DNA from: Patescibacteria group bacterium
GTDB taxonomy: Bacteria; Patescibacteriota; Patescibacteriia; UBA1558; GWA2-36-10
Assembly: GCA_041665505.1 (NCBI GenBank)
Contig: JBAYIR010000001.1
Location: forward strand, 220,392-284,391
Direction of reading: 5' to 3'
DNA: 64,000 nt
Under the pieces are notes generated by a model, which saw only the letters and a list, made by a program, of their open reading frames with translations, did no database searches and was not told the DNA's origin. Numbering within the stretch: the first letter of the stretch is position 1; each line of letters begins with the position of its first letter. The translations under genes and the position numbers were made by a program. This document shows positions 24,041 through 55,833 of this stretch, piece after piece.

Positions 24041-24084
24041 AAAAAATCATCCAGTTGCTCGTGAATGGCTGGATGATTTTTTTA
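24041..24084. terminator. Bidirectional intrinsic terminator between convergent genes
   Basis: Perfect 10-bp stem AATCATCCAG/CTGGATGATT flanked by an A-run and a T-run. Confidence 0.65.
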
Positions 24085-24525
24085 TTCTATCTTGATTATT
24101 TCATATTTAGCTAGCTTATCACCCAATTTTATTTCTACAATATCTCCAATAGCTTTACCCAATAAAGCTAAGCCTAAGGGAGAGTGGTGAGAAATAACCC
24201 CCGCGCTAGGATTGGTTTCTGAAGAGCCTAAAATACGATATTGCCGTTTCTGGTCATCTATTTTAGTAGTTATTAAATGGCCGATTTGCACAGTTTGTTT
24301 ATTTTTATTTACTTCAATAATTTGGGCATTGGCAATTTGTTTTTCAATATTTAATATTTTTTGATTTACCCCACGCAGGCTGCCTTTGGCCATTTGGTAA
24401 GCGGCATTTTCAGAAAAATCACCCATCAAAGCCAATCTTTTTACTTCGGCAATCAACTTAGGCTGAACATCTTTTTTTAATCTATCTAAATTTTTTTCTA
24501 GCTCAGCCAATTTATCCTCCGTCAT
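24082..24525 (-). CDS. greA: Transcription elongation factor GreA
   Basis: GreA N-terminal coiled coil (MTEDKLAELEKNLDRLK) and C-terminal FKBP-like domain. The ORF track extends 21 codons further to 24588, but the family N-terminus supports the internal Met. Confidence 0.8.
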   Translation of the reverse strand: MTEDKLAELEKNLDRLKKDVQPKLIAEVKRLALMGDFSENAAYQMAKGSLRGVNQKILNIEKQIANAQIIEVNKNKQTVQIGHLITTKIDDQKRQYRILGSSETNPSAGVISHHSPLGLALLGKAIGDIVEIKLGDKLAKYEIIKIE

Positions 24526-24669
24526 AAAAGGATCAGATTTTATATTTGTGTATTGTCCACCTTTTCTAATTGGTACTCTCATAGTCACTAGTATACTTTA
24601 TATATTATTTTTTTGCTAATTATTTTTTATAAAAAATAATAACTGTGGATAAGTATGCTTATAAAAGTA

Positions 24670-24994: not shown

Positions 24995-25507
24995 TTATTT
25001 TGGTACACTCACACAAGAAAGAGAGGTATAACCCTCACCATCACATTCATCTATACGAGGCTGGGTCTCTAAATTAAACTGTAAAAGATAATAATTTTTA
25101 GGAGAACCAATAATCTTTTGGTACAAATATAAATAAATAACTTGATTTGGTTCATTTTGATTAACTACAGCATTAATTGGATCGCGTGGCATAGCATCTA
25201 AACCAGGTAGCCATTGATTATCTATAGGGTGGTTATAATCAGCACTGATACAGCCACTTATACTTAGTAGACCAGAACATCTGCCATCTTCGGCAGGATA
25301 ATCATCGCCTGTAGTATAATTATAAATTTCCAAAGCTTTACGAATTTGAGTAATATCGCTTAGTCTTCTAGCATCTCTAGCCTTAGCTTTAAAATGGTTT
25401 AAATTAACTACTGCCGCAGTAGAAATAATACCAATAATAGCAATTACTACCAATAATTCCACTAAAGTAAAACCTAGTTTTTGTCTTTTAAAATGGTATA
25501 AAAGCAT
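24995..25507 (-). CDS. Type IV pilin/pseudopilin (prepilin with N-terminal methylation motif)
   Basis: KLGFTLVELLVVIAIIGIIS class III signal and hydrophobic helix. C-terminal Cys pair. Confidence 0.8.
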   Translation of the reverse strand: MLLYHFKRQKLGFTLVELLVVIAIIGIISTAAVVNLNHFKAKARDARRLSDITQIRKALEIYNYTTGDDYPAEDGRCSGLLSISGCISADYNHPIDNQWLPGLDAMPRDPINAVVNQNEPNQVIYLYLYQKIIGSPKNYYLLQFNLETQPRIDECDGEGYTSLSCVSVPK

Positions 25508-25632
25508 AACTATATAAGTATAGCATAAATTTGCTTTTTATTAATAGACTTTGTTATGCTTGAAATTATAAAATAGAGAAAGAGGAGACGCCCTAAGACG
25601 CCTCCTCTTACATATAGCTCAGGCTATTGATG

Positions 25633-25845
25633 CTAAATAGCCTTGAAGTTGCCCCAACCATTCCAAAGAGGCTGACCATGACGATCCCGCTGAGAGTCTA
25701 CCTGTATGAAAACGTCTTGGATGCTAGTCAAACCCCATCCAGCCAGAATTTCACGAGGTGGGTCTTTGCGGATGCCAGTGATAATATGAATCTTGCCACT
25801 ACCAATGGCTTTGACTTTCTGACCCTTTTTGAATTCACAAGGCAT
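25633..25845 (-). CDS. Small hypothetical protein (70 aa)
   Basis: Perfect SD AAGGAGG 7 nt upstream of the ATG. Lies in the GC-rich island. Confidence 0.5.
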   Translation of the reverse strand: MPCEFKKGQKVKAIGSGKIHIITGIRKDPPREILAGWGLTSIQDVFIQVDSQRDRHGQPLWNGWGNFKAI

Positions 25846-25869
25846 TTTCTTTCCTCCTTGAGCTGGAAG

Positions 25870-25901
25870 GCATGTGGTGTGTGAGAGAACAAAAAAGTCG
25901 C
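25870..25901 (-). terminator. Hairpin plus U-tract in the 5' leader of the small ORF (terminator or attenuator)
   Basis: On the minus strand, GTCGCTTAG-cagt-AAGCGAC followed by TTTTTT, located just upstream of the RBS. Confidence 0.45.
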
Positions 25902-26107
25902 TTACTGCTAAGCGACGAACTGGTATTTAATATAAATTATAGACTAAATAACAAATCACCACTTAACAATATAAGGGTTGTACCAAAAGAAGAAAAAATT
26001 TGGCTTGATTTGTCTCATAAAATATATATTATAATATTTTATTCAATTTGGCAAGTAACTTAAAAAAGAGCTTTTTTAAAAGCTTATATTTTTGATTAAT
26101 TTTTTGA

Positions 26108-26142
26108 GTGCCTGCCTCATCACGCTAAAGGTGACGAGGCAG
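26108..26142 (-). terminator. Stem-loop immediately 3' of the hydrolase gene
   Basis: 14-bp stem GCCTGCCTCATCAC/GTGACGAGGCAGGC with one mismatch. A second small hairpin plus U-run follows at about 26055-26075 on the minus strand. Confidence 0.45.
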
Positions 26143-26152
26143 GCTCAAGACT

Positions 26153-26833
26153 TCAGACGTCCGCTATGATGCGGTCGCCGTATTCACGACGGAAGGAGTT
26201 GATTTGCAGAAGCAGAGCCTCCAAGAGATGTTCTCCAACATAGATTCGAGTTGGAGACTGCCAGTGTGAGGACTGCTCCATGAGCTCCAAGAGGTATCTG
26301 GCCAAAGGCACATATTCGCGAATGGTTTCGTTTATTTGCTTGATTTGAAACTCTGGGTCAGCCTTGAATCCCAGAGTGCGAAGATTGGCTACCCGATCAG
26401 CTAGTTTGAGAATAATTACCTCAATACTGCCAGCTTCTCGCATTTGACGGATATAAGAAAGCTTATCCCGCTTATAATCTTCGCCTTTACTCAAAAGTTC
26501 AACCCAATAGCGGACTGTGGAGCCAAAAAGCCTCTCAATCTTGTCCAAGCTGAGTTTGTCAGCCTCTACAGCATCATGAAGCCAAGTCACAACATTCATC
26601 TGCCAGTCGTCTTTGATACCCAGTTCGCAGCTGACTAAATCAGCTACATCACGCAGGTGTTTGAAGTAGTAGGTGACACCATCACCACGATACTCACCAC
26701 GGTGAGCCCATTTCCCCAGACGGTAGGCGCAGACCATCAAGCGTGCTTCTTCAGGGTCATTGATGTAACCCTGAAAACGAACCAAATAGCGTTCGTAGCC
26801 GCGCATTTCCTCAGGTTTTTTTCTGACTTTCAT
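26153..26833 (-). CDS. HD-domain (p)ppGpp hydrolase, SpoT/Mesh1-type small alarmone hydrolase
   Basis: LHDAVED and KLADRVANLRTL match the RelA/SpoT HD hydrolase motifs. Strong SD AAGGGGGT before the internal Met (MKVRKK), so the start was trimmed from the ORF-track coordinate 26869. Distinctly higher GC than the genome. Confidence 0.7.
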   Translation of the reverse strand: MKVRKKPEEMRGYERYLVRFQGYINDPEEARLMVCAYRLGKWAHRGEYRGDGVTYYFKHLRDVADLVSCELGIKDDWQMNVVTWLHDAVEADKLSLDKIERLFGSTVRYWVELLSKGEDYKRDKLSYIRQMREAGSIEVIILKLADRVANLRTLGFKADPEFQIKQINETIREYVPLARYLLELMEQSSHWQSPTRIYVGEHLLEALLLQINSFRREYGDRIIADV

Positions 26834-26947
26834 GTTCGTTACCCCCTTGTTGACGTGAATTGTAAACAACCAAAGTTAATGTCAATAGTTATACTATAGT
26901 CCAAAATTAATGTCAAACATATATTTGTTGATAAATTAGCTAAAATA

Positions 26948-26977
26948 TTGACATAATATCTTTTTTTGTTCTATTAT
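26948..26977 (+). promoter_or_regulatory. Sigma-70 promoter (TTGACA-18-TATTAT)
   Basis: Consensus boxes upstream of an ORF-free GC-rich unit. Confidence 0.55.
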
Positions 26978-26983
26978 TTAAGG

Positions 26984-27346
26984 GTATCTAGAAGTTCCAT
27001 TTTCAAAATCCATCGTGGTTGTAGAAGTCCTAGGAGGGGAAGAAAGAAGCGACTCAATTAGGGAAGATGACCATGATGGTAGACCATCAAACTACGAAGT
27101 TAAGTAGAGGCGCCTGAACGTCTGCCAAACGACGGCCCTCTCCAGCCAATTAACTTCCTGCTTTGATGGTCATCCTTGGATGACTGCTGCTGTGAGCATC
27201 ACGTGTGAGTATCACGCCGAGCTCTCGCCTTCGGCATAGGTGGTGTTTTGCTCAACCCGAGCTTAAGTTCTAAGTCCTCAGCCGCTTGTAGCAGCAGCAT
27301 CCATGGATGAGCCCCCGGTCCGTACTGGGGGCTCGCTTTCTTTTTT
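26984..27346 (+). ncRNA. Candidate structured ncRNA A (about 360 nt), class unknown
   Basis: No ORF of 60 aa or more on either strand despite high GC. Long-range complementarities include CCTTGGATGACTGCTGCTG with CAGCAGCATCCATGG, and GATGACCAT with ATGGTCATC. There is a UUCG-type tetraloop (GCCTTCGGC). It ends in a strong terminator: a 10-bp GC stem at 27309-27334 followed by TTTCTTTTTT. Confidence 0.5.
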
Positions 27347-27359
27347 AAAATTTATACTA

Positions 27360-27388
27360 TTGACATTAACTATAAAATAAGCTATAAT
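27360..27388 (+). promoter_or_regulatory. Sigma-70 promoter (TTGACA-17-TATAAT, perfect consensus)
   Basis: Located immediately after the terminator of unit A. Confidence 0.6.
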
Positions 27389-27394
27389 ATATAA

Positions 27395-27647
27395 TCCTTT
27401 CGTTTTTTGTAGCCATGAGCTAATAAGCTAATGGGTCGCCGGTAGGTAACTCCAGGTCGTTGTAAGGGCACCCTCCTTCAATGACTGCCACCACGCCTGT
27501 CGGCGACCCAGTTAATAGTTGGACCTTGGGCTGGGAAGCATATTCCCCAGCACCACTAGCCGAGCTGAGCTGAGCGGAAAACTCAGTCCAAGGTCCACCA
27601 CCTTTTGCCCTGCCAGAAGATCACTTCGGCAGGGTCTTCAATTTGTC
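27395..27647 (+). ncRNA. Candidate structured RNA B (about 250 nt); possibly a cis-regulatory leader of alaS or an independent sRNA
   Basis: 9-bp helices GGGTCGCCG/CGGCGACCC and GGACCTTGG/CCAAGGTCC, plus internal hairpins (CTGGGAA-gcata-TTCCCAG and CTGAG-cggaaaa-CTCAG). Ends in the terminator-like hairpin CCCTGCC...GGCAGGG followed by a U-rich tail. About 85 nt upstream of alaS. Confidence 0.45.
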
Positions 27648-27732
27648 AAAATTAATTGACTTTTTAGCTTAAATTTATTAAAATATATAAGTATTTACTA
27701 TAAAAGTAGTAAATTTTTTCCAATAAACAATT

Positions 27733-29502
27733 ATGACTAGCCAAGAATTAAAAAACAATTTTTTCCAATATTTTCAGAGCAAAGATCATACTTTGATTAG
27801 TTCTGCTTCTTTGATTCCAGAAAATGACCCCACAGTATTATTTACTACTGCTGGTATGCATCCTTTGGTCCCATATTTGATGGGTGAAAAACATCCTGCT
27901 GGTCTGCGTCTGGTTAATGTTCAAAAATGTCTACGCACCGGAGATATTGATGAGGTAGGGGATGCTACACACCATACTTTTTTTGAAATGCTTGGTAATT
28001 GGTCTTTGGGGGATTATTTTAAAAAAGAGGCTATTGAATTTTCTTGGGAATTTTTAACTGAGATATTAAAACTAGATAAAAATAAATTAGCTGTTAGTGT
28101 CTTTGCTGGAGATGATGATGTTAGTCGTGATGAAGAAAGCTCTCAGATTTGGCAAAGCATTGGCGTTAGCAAAATTGCTTATCTTGGTAAAAAAGATAAT
28201 TGGTGGGGCCCAGCTGGACAGACTGGTCCTTGTGGTCCAGATACTGAAATATTTTATTGGACTAGTAGTGAGTCTGTACCAGATAATTTTGATCCAGAAG
28301 ATAAACGCTGGGTAGAAATCTGGAACAATGTCCTGATGCAATATAATAAAACTATTAATGGCCAGTATGAGCCACTGAATCAAAAAAATATTGACACTGG
28401 TATGGGTCTAGAAAGGACTCTAGCTGTTTTAAATGGTCTAGATGATAATTATTTGACTGAACTTTGGCAGCCGATTATTAAACAATTAGAAAAATTGTCA
28501 GCTAAAAAATACGGAGATGATAAAAAATCTTTTCGTATTGTAGCTGATCATATCAGGAGTGCTGTATTTTTGATGGGTGACCCTAGAGGTATTGCTCCGG
28601 CCAATAAAGATCAAGGTTATGTACTGCGTCGATTAATCAGACGAGCCATTCGTTTTGCTAAATTATTGGGTATAGAACAAGATTTTTGTGTATCCTTAGC
28701 TCAAGTGATTATTGATTTATATAAAATAGATTACCCGGAATTAGAAACAAATCAAAAATTTATAATTGATGAATTAGCTAAAGAAGAAAATAAATTTAGT
28801 CAGACGATTGAAAAAGGTATTAAAGAATTAGAAAAATTAGTAGACAAAAATTTGCTCAATGAAAAAGAAGCTTTTCAACTTTTTGCTACTTATGGCTTTC
28901 CATTAGAGATGACTTTGGAATTAGCTAAAGAAAAAGGCTTAAATTTGTCTGAAAGTAAATATCAAACAGAATTTAAACAACACCAAGATTTATCTCGCAC
29001 CGCTTCAGCTGGTATGTTTAAAGGTGGTTTAGCTGATGATAGCGAAATGGCCACCAAATATCATACTGCTACTCATCTTTTGCACCAAGCACTGCGTAAT
29101 GTTTTAGGTAATCATGTGGAGCAGCGTGGTTCTAATATCAATGCTGAGCGCTTACGTTTTGATTTTGTACATCCTGATCCAATGACCGCAGAGCAGATAA
29201 AAAAAGTAGAGGATATTGTCAATCAACAAATTCAATTGGCTTTGGCAGTTACTTGTGATGAGATGTCAGTAGCTGAAGCCAAAGAGCAGGGAGCAATTGG
29301 ATTATTTGATAAAAAATACGGAGAAAAAATAAAAGTATACACAGTTGGTCCAAACTCCTCAACCAGCTCGGAACCTCCTTTTAGTCGGGAAATTTGTGGT
29401 GGTCCACATGTCAAAAATACTAATGAATTAGGTAAATTTAGTATCAAAAAAGAGCAGTCTTCTTCAGCTGGTATCAGACGTATAAAAGCGGTGTTAGAAT
29501 AA
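27733..29502 (+). CDS. alaS: Alanine--tRNA ligase, short form (catalytic plus editing domains; lacks the C-terminal C-Ala/oligomerisation region)
   Basis: Class II AlaRS N-terminus (FTTAGMHPLVPY), WGPAGQTGPCGPDTEI, and editing-domain HxxxH (HTATHLLHQALRNVLG). Only 589 aa. Confidence 0.85.
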   Translation: MTSQELKNNFFQYFQSKDHTLISSASLIPENDPTVLFTTAGMHPLVPYLMGEKHPAGLRLVNVQKCLRTGDIDEVGDATHHTFFEMLGNWSLGDYFKKEAIEFSWEFLTEILKLDKNKLAVSVFAGDDDVSRDEESSQIWQSIGVSKIAYLGKKDNWWGPAGQTGPCGPDTEIFYWTSSESVPDNFDPEDKRWVEIWNNVLMQYNKTINGQYEPLNQKNIDTGMGLERTLAVLNGLDDNYLTELWQPIIKQLEKLSAKKYGDDKKSFRIVADHIRSAVFLMGDPRGIAPANKDQGYVLRRLIRRAIRFAKLLGIEQDFCVSLAQVIIDLYKIDYPELETNQKFIIDELAKEENKFSQTIEKGIKELEKLVDKNLLNEKEAFQLFATYGFPLEMTLELAKEKGLNLSESKYQTEFKQHQDLSRTASAGMFKGGLADDSEMATKYHTATHLLHQALRNVLGNHVEQRGSNINAERLRFDFVHPDPMTAEQIKKVEDIVNQQIQLALAVTCDEMSVAEAKEQGAIGLFDKKYGEKIKVYTVGPNSSTSSEPPFSREICGGPHVKNTNELGKFSIKKEQSSSAGIRRIKAVLE

Positions 29503-54765: not shown

Positions 54766-55722
54766 CTATTTCTTAAGGGGATGAAAATCTGTATGCATTT
54801 TTTCTGCATACCTATCACTAGCGTGTACATAACGCGTGGTAGTATCCAATGACTCATGACCTAGTAGTATTTGAATAGCTGCTGGATTAGCTCCATTTTC
54901 AGCCAAATAAGTAGCAAAGGCATGACGGATAGAGTGAGCTGAAAATGGAATGTTAATAGACAATAACTCGCGATAACGTTTTATTTTTGATTGTAAATAA
55001 TTGGTAGATATTTTTTTGTGCTTATCAGCGTTGTTTAATCCACGGTAAGGAATAAACAGATAAGGAGTAACATCATGACGAGTACTAAGATAATCTTTAA
55101 TGTGTTTTGTAGCTCGCGGAGTCAAATAAACAAAACGTTGTTTTTTGCCTTTACCCATCACATAGATACGCCCAGTATTATCTAATTGCTCACGCCTTAA
55201 GGAAAGTAATTCTGATATACGCATACCTGTAGCAAAAAGAGTTTCTAGCATGGCACGATTACGAAGTTTAATAGTCGGATCAGTTTCAAATTTTGTAGGA
55301 GCTTCTATTAACCTGATAAGCTCATGCATCTCTGGCACTTGGCCATATTTTTTTTCAGTCTTAAGTAACTTAACGGCATCAGCACTAATAGGAGTCTTAT
55401 AATCTACGTCCATCAAAAATTTTAAATAAGATCTCAGAGCTGACAAAATACGATTGATACTATGGCTAGATAATTTTTTTTCACCCGGCTCGCTCAAGGC
55501 AGTCTCCCTAGAAGTAGAGGAGAGGTAGGCCTTAAATTTGATAATAGACCTTTTGGTAAGATTTTTAAAATCAGTCTTAATATCGCTGGCTAAAAAATTT
55601 TCAAAAGTGTTTAAGTCTCTTTCATAATTGTAGACCGTCTCACTAGAGTAGTTATTGGATTGGATATTCTCCAAATACTCATCCAAGAGAGGAAGCTGAT
55701 ACTTTTTATTGGTTTTTATCAT
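54766..55722 (-). CDS. Tyrosine recombinase XerC/XerD family
   Basis: C-terminal catalytic R...HxxR...Y motifs (HSIRHAFATYL, LGHESLDTTTRY). Confidence 0.8.
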   Translation of the reverse strand: MIKTNKKYQLPLLDEYLENIQSNNYSSETVYNYERDLNTFENFLASDIKTDFKNLTKRSIIKFKAYLSSTSRETALSEPGEKKLSSHSINRILSALRSYLKFLMDVDYKTPISADAVKLLKTEKKYGQVPEMHELIRLIEAPTKFETDPTIKLRNRAMLETLFATGMRISELLSLRREQLDNTGRIYVMGKGKKQRFVYLTPRATKHIKDYLSTRHDVTPYLFIPYRGLNNADKHKKISTNYLQSKIKRYRELLSINIPFSAHSIRHAFATYLAENGANPAAIQILLGHESLDTTTRYVHASDRYAEKMHTDFHPLKK

Positions 55723-55833
55723 ATCTATATTATAAAGGCTGTTTTTATTATTGTCAAACTGAGTGTAAGAGTTATTATACTCAGTTAGTATTATCCATAA
55801 TAAAAAGGCTTATTAAGCCTCATTACTATTAAA

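Follow-up and report, generated by a model that had tools for sequence, protein, structure and literature searches.

We show that positions 27360-27646 of the window, i.e., the whole 64-kb stretch of DNA that was analysed, make up a predicted self-contained gene whose product is a structured non-coding RNA ~245 nt long (unit 2 hereafter) and which has its own strong sigma-70-type promoter. Judged from its orthologues, unit 2 represents a small, previously unclassified family that is confined to a clade of AT-rich Patescibacteria; the members of this family sit just 5' of the promoter of alaS, usually behind a further RNA gene (unit 1). The family is new, its kind (a stand-alone structured sRNA) is ordinary, and its distribution is narrow. 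As the best explanation overall, and probably the correct one, we regard unit 2 as a stand-alone sRNA gene, the product of which would act in trans and be bound by protein, its adjacency to alaS being a matter of synteny. Patescibacteria are uncultured bacteria with reduced genomes that may lean heavily on few regulators; to our knowledge, small RNAs with a regulatory or structural role have hardly been explored in this group (candidate phyla radiation), and we know of none that has been characterised. In a full-text literature search, we came across no account of RNAs of this type from Patescibacteria. With its two strongly promoted RNAs, both maintained by selection, and an apparently portable GAG-repeat module, the locus offers a concrete handle for their study.

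Architecture of the predicted RNA gene

Unit 2 is embedded in the following arrangement of genes and RNA units (window coordinates):

24082-24588, minus strand: greA
24995-25507, minus strand: pilin-like gene
25633-25845, minus strand: ORF of 70 aa
26153-26836, minus strand: SpoT-like HD_4 (small-alarmone-hydrolase-like) gene (Pfam PF13328, E = 2e-9)
~26985-27346, plus strand: unit 1 RNA, with a promoter at 26948 and a strong terminator at 27308-27335
27360-27646, plus strand: unit 2 RNA gene (the RNA under study), with its promoter at 27360
27733-29502, plus strand: alaS, encoding a 589-aa AlaRS (Pfam tRNA-synt_2c, E = 3e-135, plus tRNA_SAD)
3' of alaS: a hibernation-factor gene, then secA

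The GC content of the window is 33%, and its sole GC-rich stretch in 64 kb extends from ~25570 to 27640, the HD_4 and 70-aa genes having ~46-50% GC vs 33% for the window. The 70-aa ORF matched no Pfam family, TRAP family included (six ORFs near the locus were scanned), and neither the HD_4 protein nor the 70-aa protein had a match in the PADLOC defence library. Orthologues of unit 1 were found in the related loci L172, L171, L176 and L005, and L175 may carry an AT-rich further version of it.

The promoter, the body and the tail of unit 2 were resolved into these elements:

27360-27388, plus strand: promoter, with the -35 element TTGACA at 27360-27365, a 17-nt spacer and the -10 element TATAAT at 27383-27388
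27396-27432, plus strand: 5' leader of unit 2, single-stranded or weakly structured in the predicted fold
27433-27509, plus strand: helix P1, a 15-bp outer stem (GGGUCGCCGGUAGGU / GCCUGUCGGCGACCC) around a variable inner hairpin; inverted repeat I13
27510-27520, plus strand: linker J1/2, AGUUAAUAGUU, conserved (AGCUAAUAGUU in L172, UAUUAAUAUAGUU in L176)
27521-27596, plus strand: helix P2, a 15-bp outer stem (GGACCUUGGGCUGGG / CUCAGUCCAAGGUCC); inverted repeat I14
27557-27579, plus strand: GAG-repeat module within P2, UAG-cc-GAG-cu-GAG-cu-GAG-cg-GAA, made up of five triplets that recur every 5 nt
27597-27607, plus strand: linker J2/3, ACCACCUUUUG, conserved
27608-27634, plus strand: helix P3, terminator-like, CCCUGCC-A-GAAG / CUUC-G-GGCAGGG, from the fold
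to 27646, plus strand: U-rich tail after P3, UCUUCAAUUUGU

The promoter matches the consensus at 12 of 12 positions, and the exact TTGACA-17-TATAAT arrangement occurs twice in the 64-kb window vs 0.02 occurrences expected from shuffles. Transcription would start near 27395, both ends of the transcript being deduced from sequence signals alone. Positions 27396-27645 have 54% GC, and the predicted fold of unit 2 has an MFE of -104.4 kcal/mol (z = -5.9), a value equalled by none of 200 shuffles. The architecture is that of three independent long hairpins with conserved linkers between them; the outer stems of P1 and P2 comprise 15 ungapped pairs each, and the G-U pairs in these two helices mark the plus strand as the transcribed strand. 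The P3 stem ends 99 nt and the U-rich tail ~87 nt before the ATG of alaS (27733), which places them ~20 nt and ~10 nt, respectively, 5' of the alaS promoter. The tail is imperfect in the window and in L172 and fails the U-run rule of a simple terminator scan, and 4-7 consecutive U follow P3 in L176, L008, L013 and L091 (by eye). A coding gene was rejected because unit 2 contains no credible ORF and has stops in all six frames; the single ORF that reaches 40 aa is a TTG-started frame of 46 aa with no ribosome-binding site, and it is shortened to 21 codons in L176 (by eye).

Much of this had been described in a first-pass annotation of the same DNA, in which a perfect TTGACA-17-TATAAT promoter, a GC-rich RNA of ~250 nt and a terminator-like end ~85 nt before alaS were correctly recognised. 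The two enclosing helices that it reported are real and correspond to P1 and P2, but their length was given as 9 bp instead of 15 pairs each. It had also left open whether the element is an sRNA or a cis-regulatory leader, and the former agrees with the gene's own promoter, the terminal hairpin and U-tail, the lack of an ORF, the orthologues in five lineages and the covariation. An Rfam scan, which it had suggested as a check, matched no family, the T-box included: no covariance-model match was found in unit 2 with Rfam 15 (4227 models, including tmRNA, RNase P, SRP, 6S, OLE, raiA and ribozymes), no T-box (RF00230) was detected by cmscan of 26850-27760 at the gathering score and at E <= 10, in line with the earlier remark that the canonical T-box sequence (AGGGUGGNACCGCG) is missing, and in the six orthologous loci cmscan at E <= 5 detected neither a T-box nor any other family within the RNA. 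ARAGORN found no tRNA, tmRNA or tRNA-like structure at unit 2.

Distribution and covariation of the family

Related loci were gathered via homologues of HD_4, homologues of AlaRS, and searches of public genome and metagenome collections with AlaRS as the query; of these searches, the genome scan yielded L011-L014 and the metagenome scan one close relative, L091, which is cut 188 nt 5' of alaS. A descriptor that combined the J2/3 linker with P3 (A[CT]CAC, <=16 nt, CCCT[GA] ... [CT]AGGGT) matched solely just 5' of the alaS promoter (1.3 Mb, both strands; 6 lineages), L013 being picked up with a P3-only pattern. Orthologues of unit 2 are thereby known from five Patescibacteria lineages besides the window, and the family of 6 lineages (window included) comprises 3 close relatives and 1 partial copy:

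Window: family member, reference for the AlaRS identities; its AlaRS is 100% identical to P0012, a protein annotated in a Patescibacteria MAG
L172 (run SRR28219341): family member; AlaRS 92% identical to the window
L091: family member, partial (the contig ends inside the RNA); AlaRS 81% identical to the window
L176-L179: family members; AlaRS 73% identical to the window
L013: family member with the linker AUCAC; AlaRS 69% identical to the window
L008: family member; the contig ends inside alaS

Members range in length from 210 to 310 nt, and near-consensus promoters (TTGACA/17/TAnnnT) are found in the same place in L172, L176, L008 and L013. Conservation in unit 2 concerns the helix bases and the short linkers (UUAAUAGUU, ACCAC). 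The ACCAC in J2/3 is invariant in five of the six lineages (AUCAC in L013), and the base of the P3 stem, CCCUG/CAGGG, is invariant, with insertions of 45-55 nt held inside the stem in L176, L008 and L013. P2 is optional, being present in the window, L172, L176 and L091 and missing in L008 and L013, in which P1 runs straight into the ACCAC/AUCAC linker, followed by P3. A comparison of the window with L172 gave 93-98% identity for the two RNA units and 82-93% for the surrounding genes; the sole divergent block of the RNAs is the P1 interior (72%), which shows compensatory changes, its 3' arm having been rewritten (from CAAUGACU to ACAACAGCU) in such a way that it still pairs with the 5' arm, which has hardly changed. 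Compared with L172, the window has 8 nt duplicated in the 5' leader of unit 2 (AGCTAATA; pairwise alignment). The gene content of the slot 5' of alaS varies among relatives, and the HD_4-alaS synteny persists between loci whose HD_4 proteins share as little as 38% identity. In L176-L179, both RNA units and the 70-aa ORF occur where there is no HD_4 gene, for which reason a dependence of unit 2 on the HD_4 gene was rejected.

Covariation was found in each helix. In P1, the pairs at ranks 6-9 (counted from the helix base) change from GC/CG/CG/GC to AU/UA/UA/UA, and double compensatory changes affect six of the nine base-proximal pairs (5 lineages). In P2, ranks 9-11 change from GC/GU/CG to AU/UA/UA in L176, and in P3, ranks 5-7 change from GC/CG/CG to AU/UA/AU, covarying in L091 and L176. 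Because the five full-length RNAs, with their domain insertions, could not be usefully aligned over their whole length with MAFFT, core constructs were used, in which the helix interiors were swapped for GAAA spacers and homologous stem positions share columns. In these constructs (P1, P3), 95% of the cells are paired, and double changes occur in 11 of 20 pairs; the covariation score of the P1/P3 cores was reached by none of 500 shuffles, and slid controls came nowhere near it, statistics that are optimistic, with 5-6 sequences and stems picked by eye before the pairs were counted. The substitutions indicate that unit 2 is under selection for structure, with compensatory changes in all three helices.

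The alaS promoter and its leader

The first-pass annotation had treated 27360-27732 as one unit. This merged two transcription units, as 27646-27732 holds the promoter and a short leader of alaS:

27656-27684, plus strand: alaS promoter, with the -35 element TTGACT, a 17-nt spacer and the -10 element TAAAAT; 10 of 12 consensus positions matched; outside the RNA
27693-27719, plus strand: hairpin followed by U6 in the alaS 5' UTR, AUUUACUAU-AAAA-GUAGUAAAU-UUUUU

When the 100 nt before the start codon were aligned, the alaS promoter (TTGACTTTTTAGCTTAAATTTAyTAAAAT) proved to be kept in 11 lineages, whether they have the RNA or not, and in BLAST searches against the related loci this piece was the best-conserved part of the intergenic region (90% over 51 nt in L002). 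L011/L175 and L173 have kept the alaS promoter and leader and lack unit 2, a protein-coding gene or a short spacer preceding the promoter, and in L002, L005 and L174 an unrelated RNA fills the slot 5' of it. Since the alaS promoter is conserved with and without unit 2, alaS would be transcribed from its own promoter either way. The actual leader of alaS is the hairpin at 27693-27719, not unit 2; five of nine lineages have a hairpin and a subsequent U-run in the alaS 5' UTR, with stem sequences that differ in L005 and L008.

These results bear directly on the proposal that unit 2 is a cis-regulatory leader of alaS, in which transcripts from 27360 would be stopped at P3 or read through depending on tRNA-Ala, alanine or AlaRS. 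We consider it distinctly unlikely. Unit 2 does lie directly 5' of alaS in all six lineages that have the RNA, the imperfect U-tail in the window and L172 might render termination leaky, and the ACCA after a helix is reminiscent of a tRNA acceptor end. However, a separate, highly conserved alaS promoter, common to all 11 lineages, lies 3' of P3, relatives whose AlaRS is 73-75% identical have retained this promoter and the leader and have no unit 2, and neither a T-box nor any other leader family was recognised in Rfam. The folds speak against a switch as well: when the 3' arm of P3 is forbidden, 14.6-16.1 kcal/mol are lost in the five full-length orthologues, and the freed 5' arm pairs with non-homologous, differing partners or with none, while the 45-55-nt insertions in the P3 stem (L176, L008, L013) suit a structural helix rather than a balanced switch. 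A GACCC/GGGUC alternative between the 3' strands of P1 and P3 was discarded, being too short (5 nt) and not conserved in L013 (by eye). A regulated leader survives solely as a possible leaky read-through into alaS in the window and L172, the U-tail of which would have decayed.

Hence the leader, riboswitch or attenuator reading of the first-pass annotation could not be upheld in view of the separate alaS promoter, the RNA-less relatives and the lack of an antiterminator, and with it falls the suggestion of a possibly novel mechanism of alaS control, which promoter, relatives and folds leave unsupported. The alternative terminator/antiterminator fold that had been envisaged was not found as a conserved feature in the five full-length orthologues. 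As for the element 5' of alaS in related genomes, it is conserved at the same position in some relatives but absent in others, so that the lack of conservation upstream of alaS homologues, which had been named as evidence against the proposal, was found in part. This negative outcome removes an unsupported claim of new alaS control and directs attention to the conserved alaS promoter and the short hairpin leader.

Two known systems of synthetase control invite comparison. T-box leaders (RF00230) control aminoacyl-tRNA synthetase genes, including alaS, in Firmicutes. Unit 2 is similar in being a structured RNA of 200-300 nt 5' of such a gene and in ending with a terminator-like hairpin, but differs in that it has no Rfam match (E <= 10), no T-box sequence and no antiterminator, and in that a promoter intervenes before alaS. 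In E. coli, AlaRS is said to bind a palindrome around the transcription start of its own alaS gene, reportedly described by Putney and Schimmel in 1981. The plausible control region here resembles that case, as it consists of the gene's own promoter and a short leader with a conserved palindrome/hairpin (27693-27714); this hairpin, however, lies 3' of unit 2 and is separate from it, and the AlaRS of the window has 589 aa.

Possible functions of unit 2

Three further explanations place the function of unit 2, or its absence, elsewhere. A trans-acting sRNA that base-pairs through a seed, either UUAAUAGUU or the (C)CACCAC before the terminator, is suggested by the typical build of the gene (own promoter, stem-loops, a conserved single-stranded stretch by a putative intrinsic terminator), and CCACCACCUUUU may loosely resemble the anti-Shine-Dalgarno end of 16S rRNA. 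Nevertheless, we regard such a function as rather unlikely: the conserved unpaired segments measure 5-9 nt, conservation resides mostly in the helix bases, both candidate pairings are not conserved and look like chance, and a seed-type sRNA would not usually be so highly structured, measure 210-310 nt or have whole domains that are optional. Among the complementarities that were tried and rejected, GGUCCACCAC, antisense to the alaS codons for CGGPH, is perfect in L172 alone (one mismatch in the window, 2-3 in L176/L091), and an 8-nt match between CACCACCU of unit 2 and AGGUGGUG of unit 1 is not conserved in L176 (by eye, compared with L172 and L176). That unit 2 has no dedicated function in the host and came in by horizontal transfer as cargo of a GC-rich island, or is what remains of such an island, is suggested by its position in the only GC-rich stretch of the 64 kb (25570-27640), by the ~46-50% GC of the HD_4 and 70-aa genes, and by the variable content of the slot in relatives, and yet it is very unlikely, given that the RNA is better conserved than the adjoining coding DNA, that its substitutions keep the pairing and that a near-consensus promoter is kept in each orthologue. 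Moreover, neither flanking direct repeats nor an integrase were found, the HD_4-alaS synteny extends down to 38% HD_4 identity, and searches of phage genomes gave no match and those of viral contigs no credible one, 120 pattern matches in viral contigs being due to chance, with no stem or U-tail.

It is highly improbable that the RNA serves as a tRNA acceptor-end mimic or decoy for AlaRS, the CCA-adding enzyme, an end-modifying toxin or the HD_4 hydrolase. ACCAC directly follows a 5'-GG...CC-3' helix on its 3' side in five of the six lineages (P2 in four, P1 in L008), and unit 2 is located between alaS and, in most lineages, the HD_4 gene; against this, the ACCA is internal, being followed by the linker and P3, and forms no 3' end, and in L013 it is replaced by AUCAC, which is separated from the helix. 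AlaRS requires a G3:U70 pair, but the position equivalent to 3:70 is occupied by A-U in the window and by G-C in L008. The negative ARAGORN result for tRNA-like structures argues in the same direction, as does the presence of both RNAs in L176-L179, where no HD_4 gene exists on which they could depend.

The reading that we prefer, a stand-alone sRNA acting in trans and bound by protein, draws on the GAG-repeat module. A 13-nt motif, AGC[TG]GAGC[TG]GAG, was found in 5 independent lineages, in each case within these RNAs, together with one stray match (1.3 Mb of related loci); its carriers are unit 2 in the window, L172 and L091, the upstream RNA in L008, and a single 420-nt RNA in L005. When GAA, AAG and UAG are allowed, the runs comprise five triplets in the window, L172 and L005 and six in unit 1 of L008; the strict GAG run is three, L176 has a degenerate copy with a run of three, and L013 has none. 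The run length was reached by none of 500 shuffles, for a motif, (GAG-NN)3-6, that was defined after inspection, and the module is partly base-paired in the predicted folds. It seems to occur once per locus, on differing RNAs, which suggests a portable recognition element.

It is the specificity of the GAG-NN repeats to these RNAs, together with their varying placement among lineages, that leads us to consider binding by protein. Unit 2 would then act in trans, its most likely role being that of a scaffold or sponge that binds protein, a mechanism that we propose tentatively and rate well short of an even chance. The conserved helix bases, the junction/linkers and the GAG triplets spaced by two nucleotides might form the recognition surface, and the long helices might act as stable, sequence-tolerant spacers. 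The adjacency to alaS would be inherited synteny, and the putative terminator of unit 2 might mainly insulate the alaS promoter from the strong promoter upstream.

Repeated short motifs mark several RNAs that bind or titrate proteins. Oligomeric proteins of the TRAP type read (G/U)AG triplets separated by 2-3 nt, and GGA repeats are found in CsrB/RsmZ. The UAG/GAG/GAG/GAG/GAA series of unit 2, with its exact 2-nt spacers, would fit the TRAP spacing rule, and the module seems to be portable among the RNAs of the locus; however, it has 3-6 repeats, whereas TRAP needs more, L013 has none at all, and the module is partly base-paired. No TRAP (MtrB) homologue was found among the six ORFs near the locus that were scanned against Pfam.

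Stand-alone structured ncRNAs appear as GC-rich islands in AT-rich intergenic DNA (Breaker-laboratory approach; PMC6429828, PMC8632094, PMC11109978). Unit 2 resembles ncRNAs of the raiA/OLE type in that it is GC-rich, ORF-free and strongly folded, shows covariation, has its own promoter and a putative terminator and is restricted to a narrow range of organisms, but its sequence and architecture are different, and it matches no curated family. In a comparison with OLE and its partner OapB (a small KOW-like RNA-binding protein, PDB 7k9b), unit 2 matches OLE neither in sequence nor in structure. The fold likeness of a small KOW-like protein to OapB is generic, uL24 and Spt5 KOW domains scoring higher, and this protein and the unit 2 RNA co-occur incompletely. 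No OapA- or OapC-like genes were seen.

A more far-reaching idea, which we think unlikely, is that units 1 and 2 are the RNA parts of a lineage-specific ribonucleoprotein of Patescibacteria with interchangeable modules and an oligomeric or KOW-like small protein as the reader. If this were true, the locus would couple a new abundant RNA, of the same general kind as OLE, 6S and CsrB yet unrelated to them, to translation or stress functions (alaS, hibernation factor, SpoT-like hydrolase). The modules in question would be a AGGAGGGGA domain, the GAG-NN repeats and a GGGUC/ACCAC/CCCUG junction, and the reader might perhaps be the rare 70-aa protein encoded next door.

Unit 1 and other RNA-like units beside alaS

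Upstream of unit 2, the structured RNA gene of ~245 nt that precedes the promoter of the alanyl-tRNA synthetase gene (alaS), lies a larger structured RNA gene of ~360 nt, for which no Rfam match was obtained:

26948-27346 (+): unit 1, structured RNA gene

Its promoter reads TTGACA-18-TATTAT (at 26948), a strong terminator occupies 27308-27335, and the predicted fold has an MFE of -142.8 kcal/mol (z = -5.3). Unit 1 shares 93-96% identity with its counterpart in L172, one of the loci from related genomes, and orthologues in three others (L171, L176 and L005) share a 5' domain, AGGAGGGGAA...AGCGACUC, together with a helix, ACUGCUGC.../...GCAGCAGC. Conservation of unit 1 is wider than that of unit 2. 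Immediately 5' of the unit-1 -35 box, at 26928-26947 (+), we also noted the motif GT(G/T)GATAAATTAGC(T/C)AAA, which is kept in L172, L176, L175 and L171 and partially in L005 (the copy in L001 is cut by the contig end); it may function as an UP element or be bound by a regulator.

The same neighbourhood in five relatives holds units that run from promoter to terminator without an ORF, are 160-430 nt long and form long hairpins.

ORF-free promoter-to-terminator units in loci from related genomes
L010, 1205-1640 (-)
L174, 3505-3930 (+)
L012, 2062-2362 (+)
L002, 5608-5885 (-)
L013, 2978-3140 (+)

None of these units matched an Rfam family in the loci searched, and no resemblance to unit 1 or unit 2 could be recognised in any of them. 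It seems that the site beside alaS and HD_4, a SpoT-like hydrolase gene, is a hotspot of fast-evolving RNA genes. A separate observation concerns L013, in which an 86-nt stretch (1179-1264, -) matches positions 2128-2213 of bacterial 23S rRNA (the L1-stalk region; 54.9 bits) outside any rRNA operon; this stretch may serve a ribosomal-protein operon as a leader that mimics rRNA.

The alaS control region and its product

The segment 27656-27732 (+) is the real alaS control region. Its promoter is unusually conserved, even in the spacer, across 11 lineages, and the leader that follows is ~45 nt long, shows no visible Shine-Dalgarno sequence, and carries a weak AU-rich hairpin with a U6 run (27693-27719). 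Hairpin and U-run are retained in five of nine lineages with differing stem sequences, and the hairpin could be either an attenuator or an operator palindrome, the latter resembling the situation in E. coli alaS. The encoded AlaRS (27733-29502, +) comprises only 589 aa, and tRNA-synt_2c and tRNA_SAD are its only Pfam domains; a typical bacterial AlaRS has ~870 aa, and by this measure the protein seems to lack the usual C-terminal extension. Its close homologues in archaeal DPANN and Lentisphaerota MAGs are 55-60% identical.

The HD_4 gene and an adjacent putative leader-peptide cassette

The hydrolase gene is of the small alarmone hydrolase type:

26153-26836 (-): HD_4 gene, SpoT-hydrolase-like

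Its GC content is ~48%, compared with 33% for the genome, and it belongs to a small family, with 11 members in a search of 5.8 billion proteins. Synteny between HD_4 and alaS was found in most relatives, down to an HD_4 identity of 38% (L013); in L007 and L010 the gene stands in other contexts. The -35 context of the unit-2 promoter, ACTATTGACATTAACT (27356-27371, +), recurs as an exact copy on the other strand before the HD_4 gene (26870-26916, -), where two tandem copies of TTGACATTAA(C/T)TTTGG are present; the repeat could be a site for a shared regulator or simply an extended -35 region.

Upstream of a 70-aa ORF (25633-25845, -) lies a cassette of the following elements and a strong Shine-Dalgarno sequence.

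Putative leader-peptide cassette of the 70-aa ORF
25897-26054 (-): whole cassette
26054-26026 (-): promoter-like site
26018-25956 (-): 20-codon ORF with many aromatic residues, MRQIKPNFFFFWYNPYIVKW
25916-25897 (-): terminator hairpin and U6

The peptide (M.QI.Q..(F/Y)F(F/L)W(Y/R)N.Y...) and the hairpin recur 5' of the homologous ORF in L171, L176 and L007, and just upstream of a similar small ORF of unconfirmed homology in L005. The arrangement is suggestive of either attenuation by a Phe/aromatic leader peptide or a conserved micro-protein.

A second perfect promoter

The window contains only one other perfect TTGACA-17-TATAAT, which lies together with a 318-aa ORF in the interval 54766-55757 (-). 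The ATG of this ORF, which by eye looks like a putative XerC/D-type tyrosine recombinase, follows the -10 box at a distance of 6 nt, and the mRNA would be leaderless.
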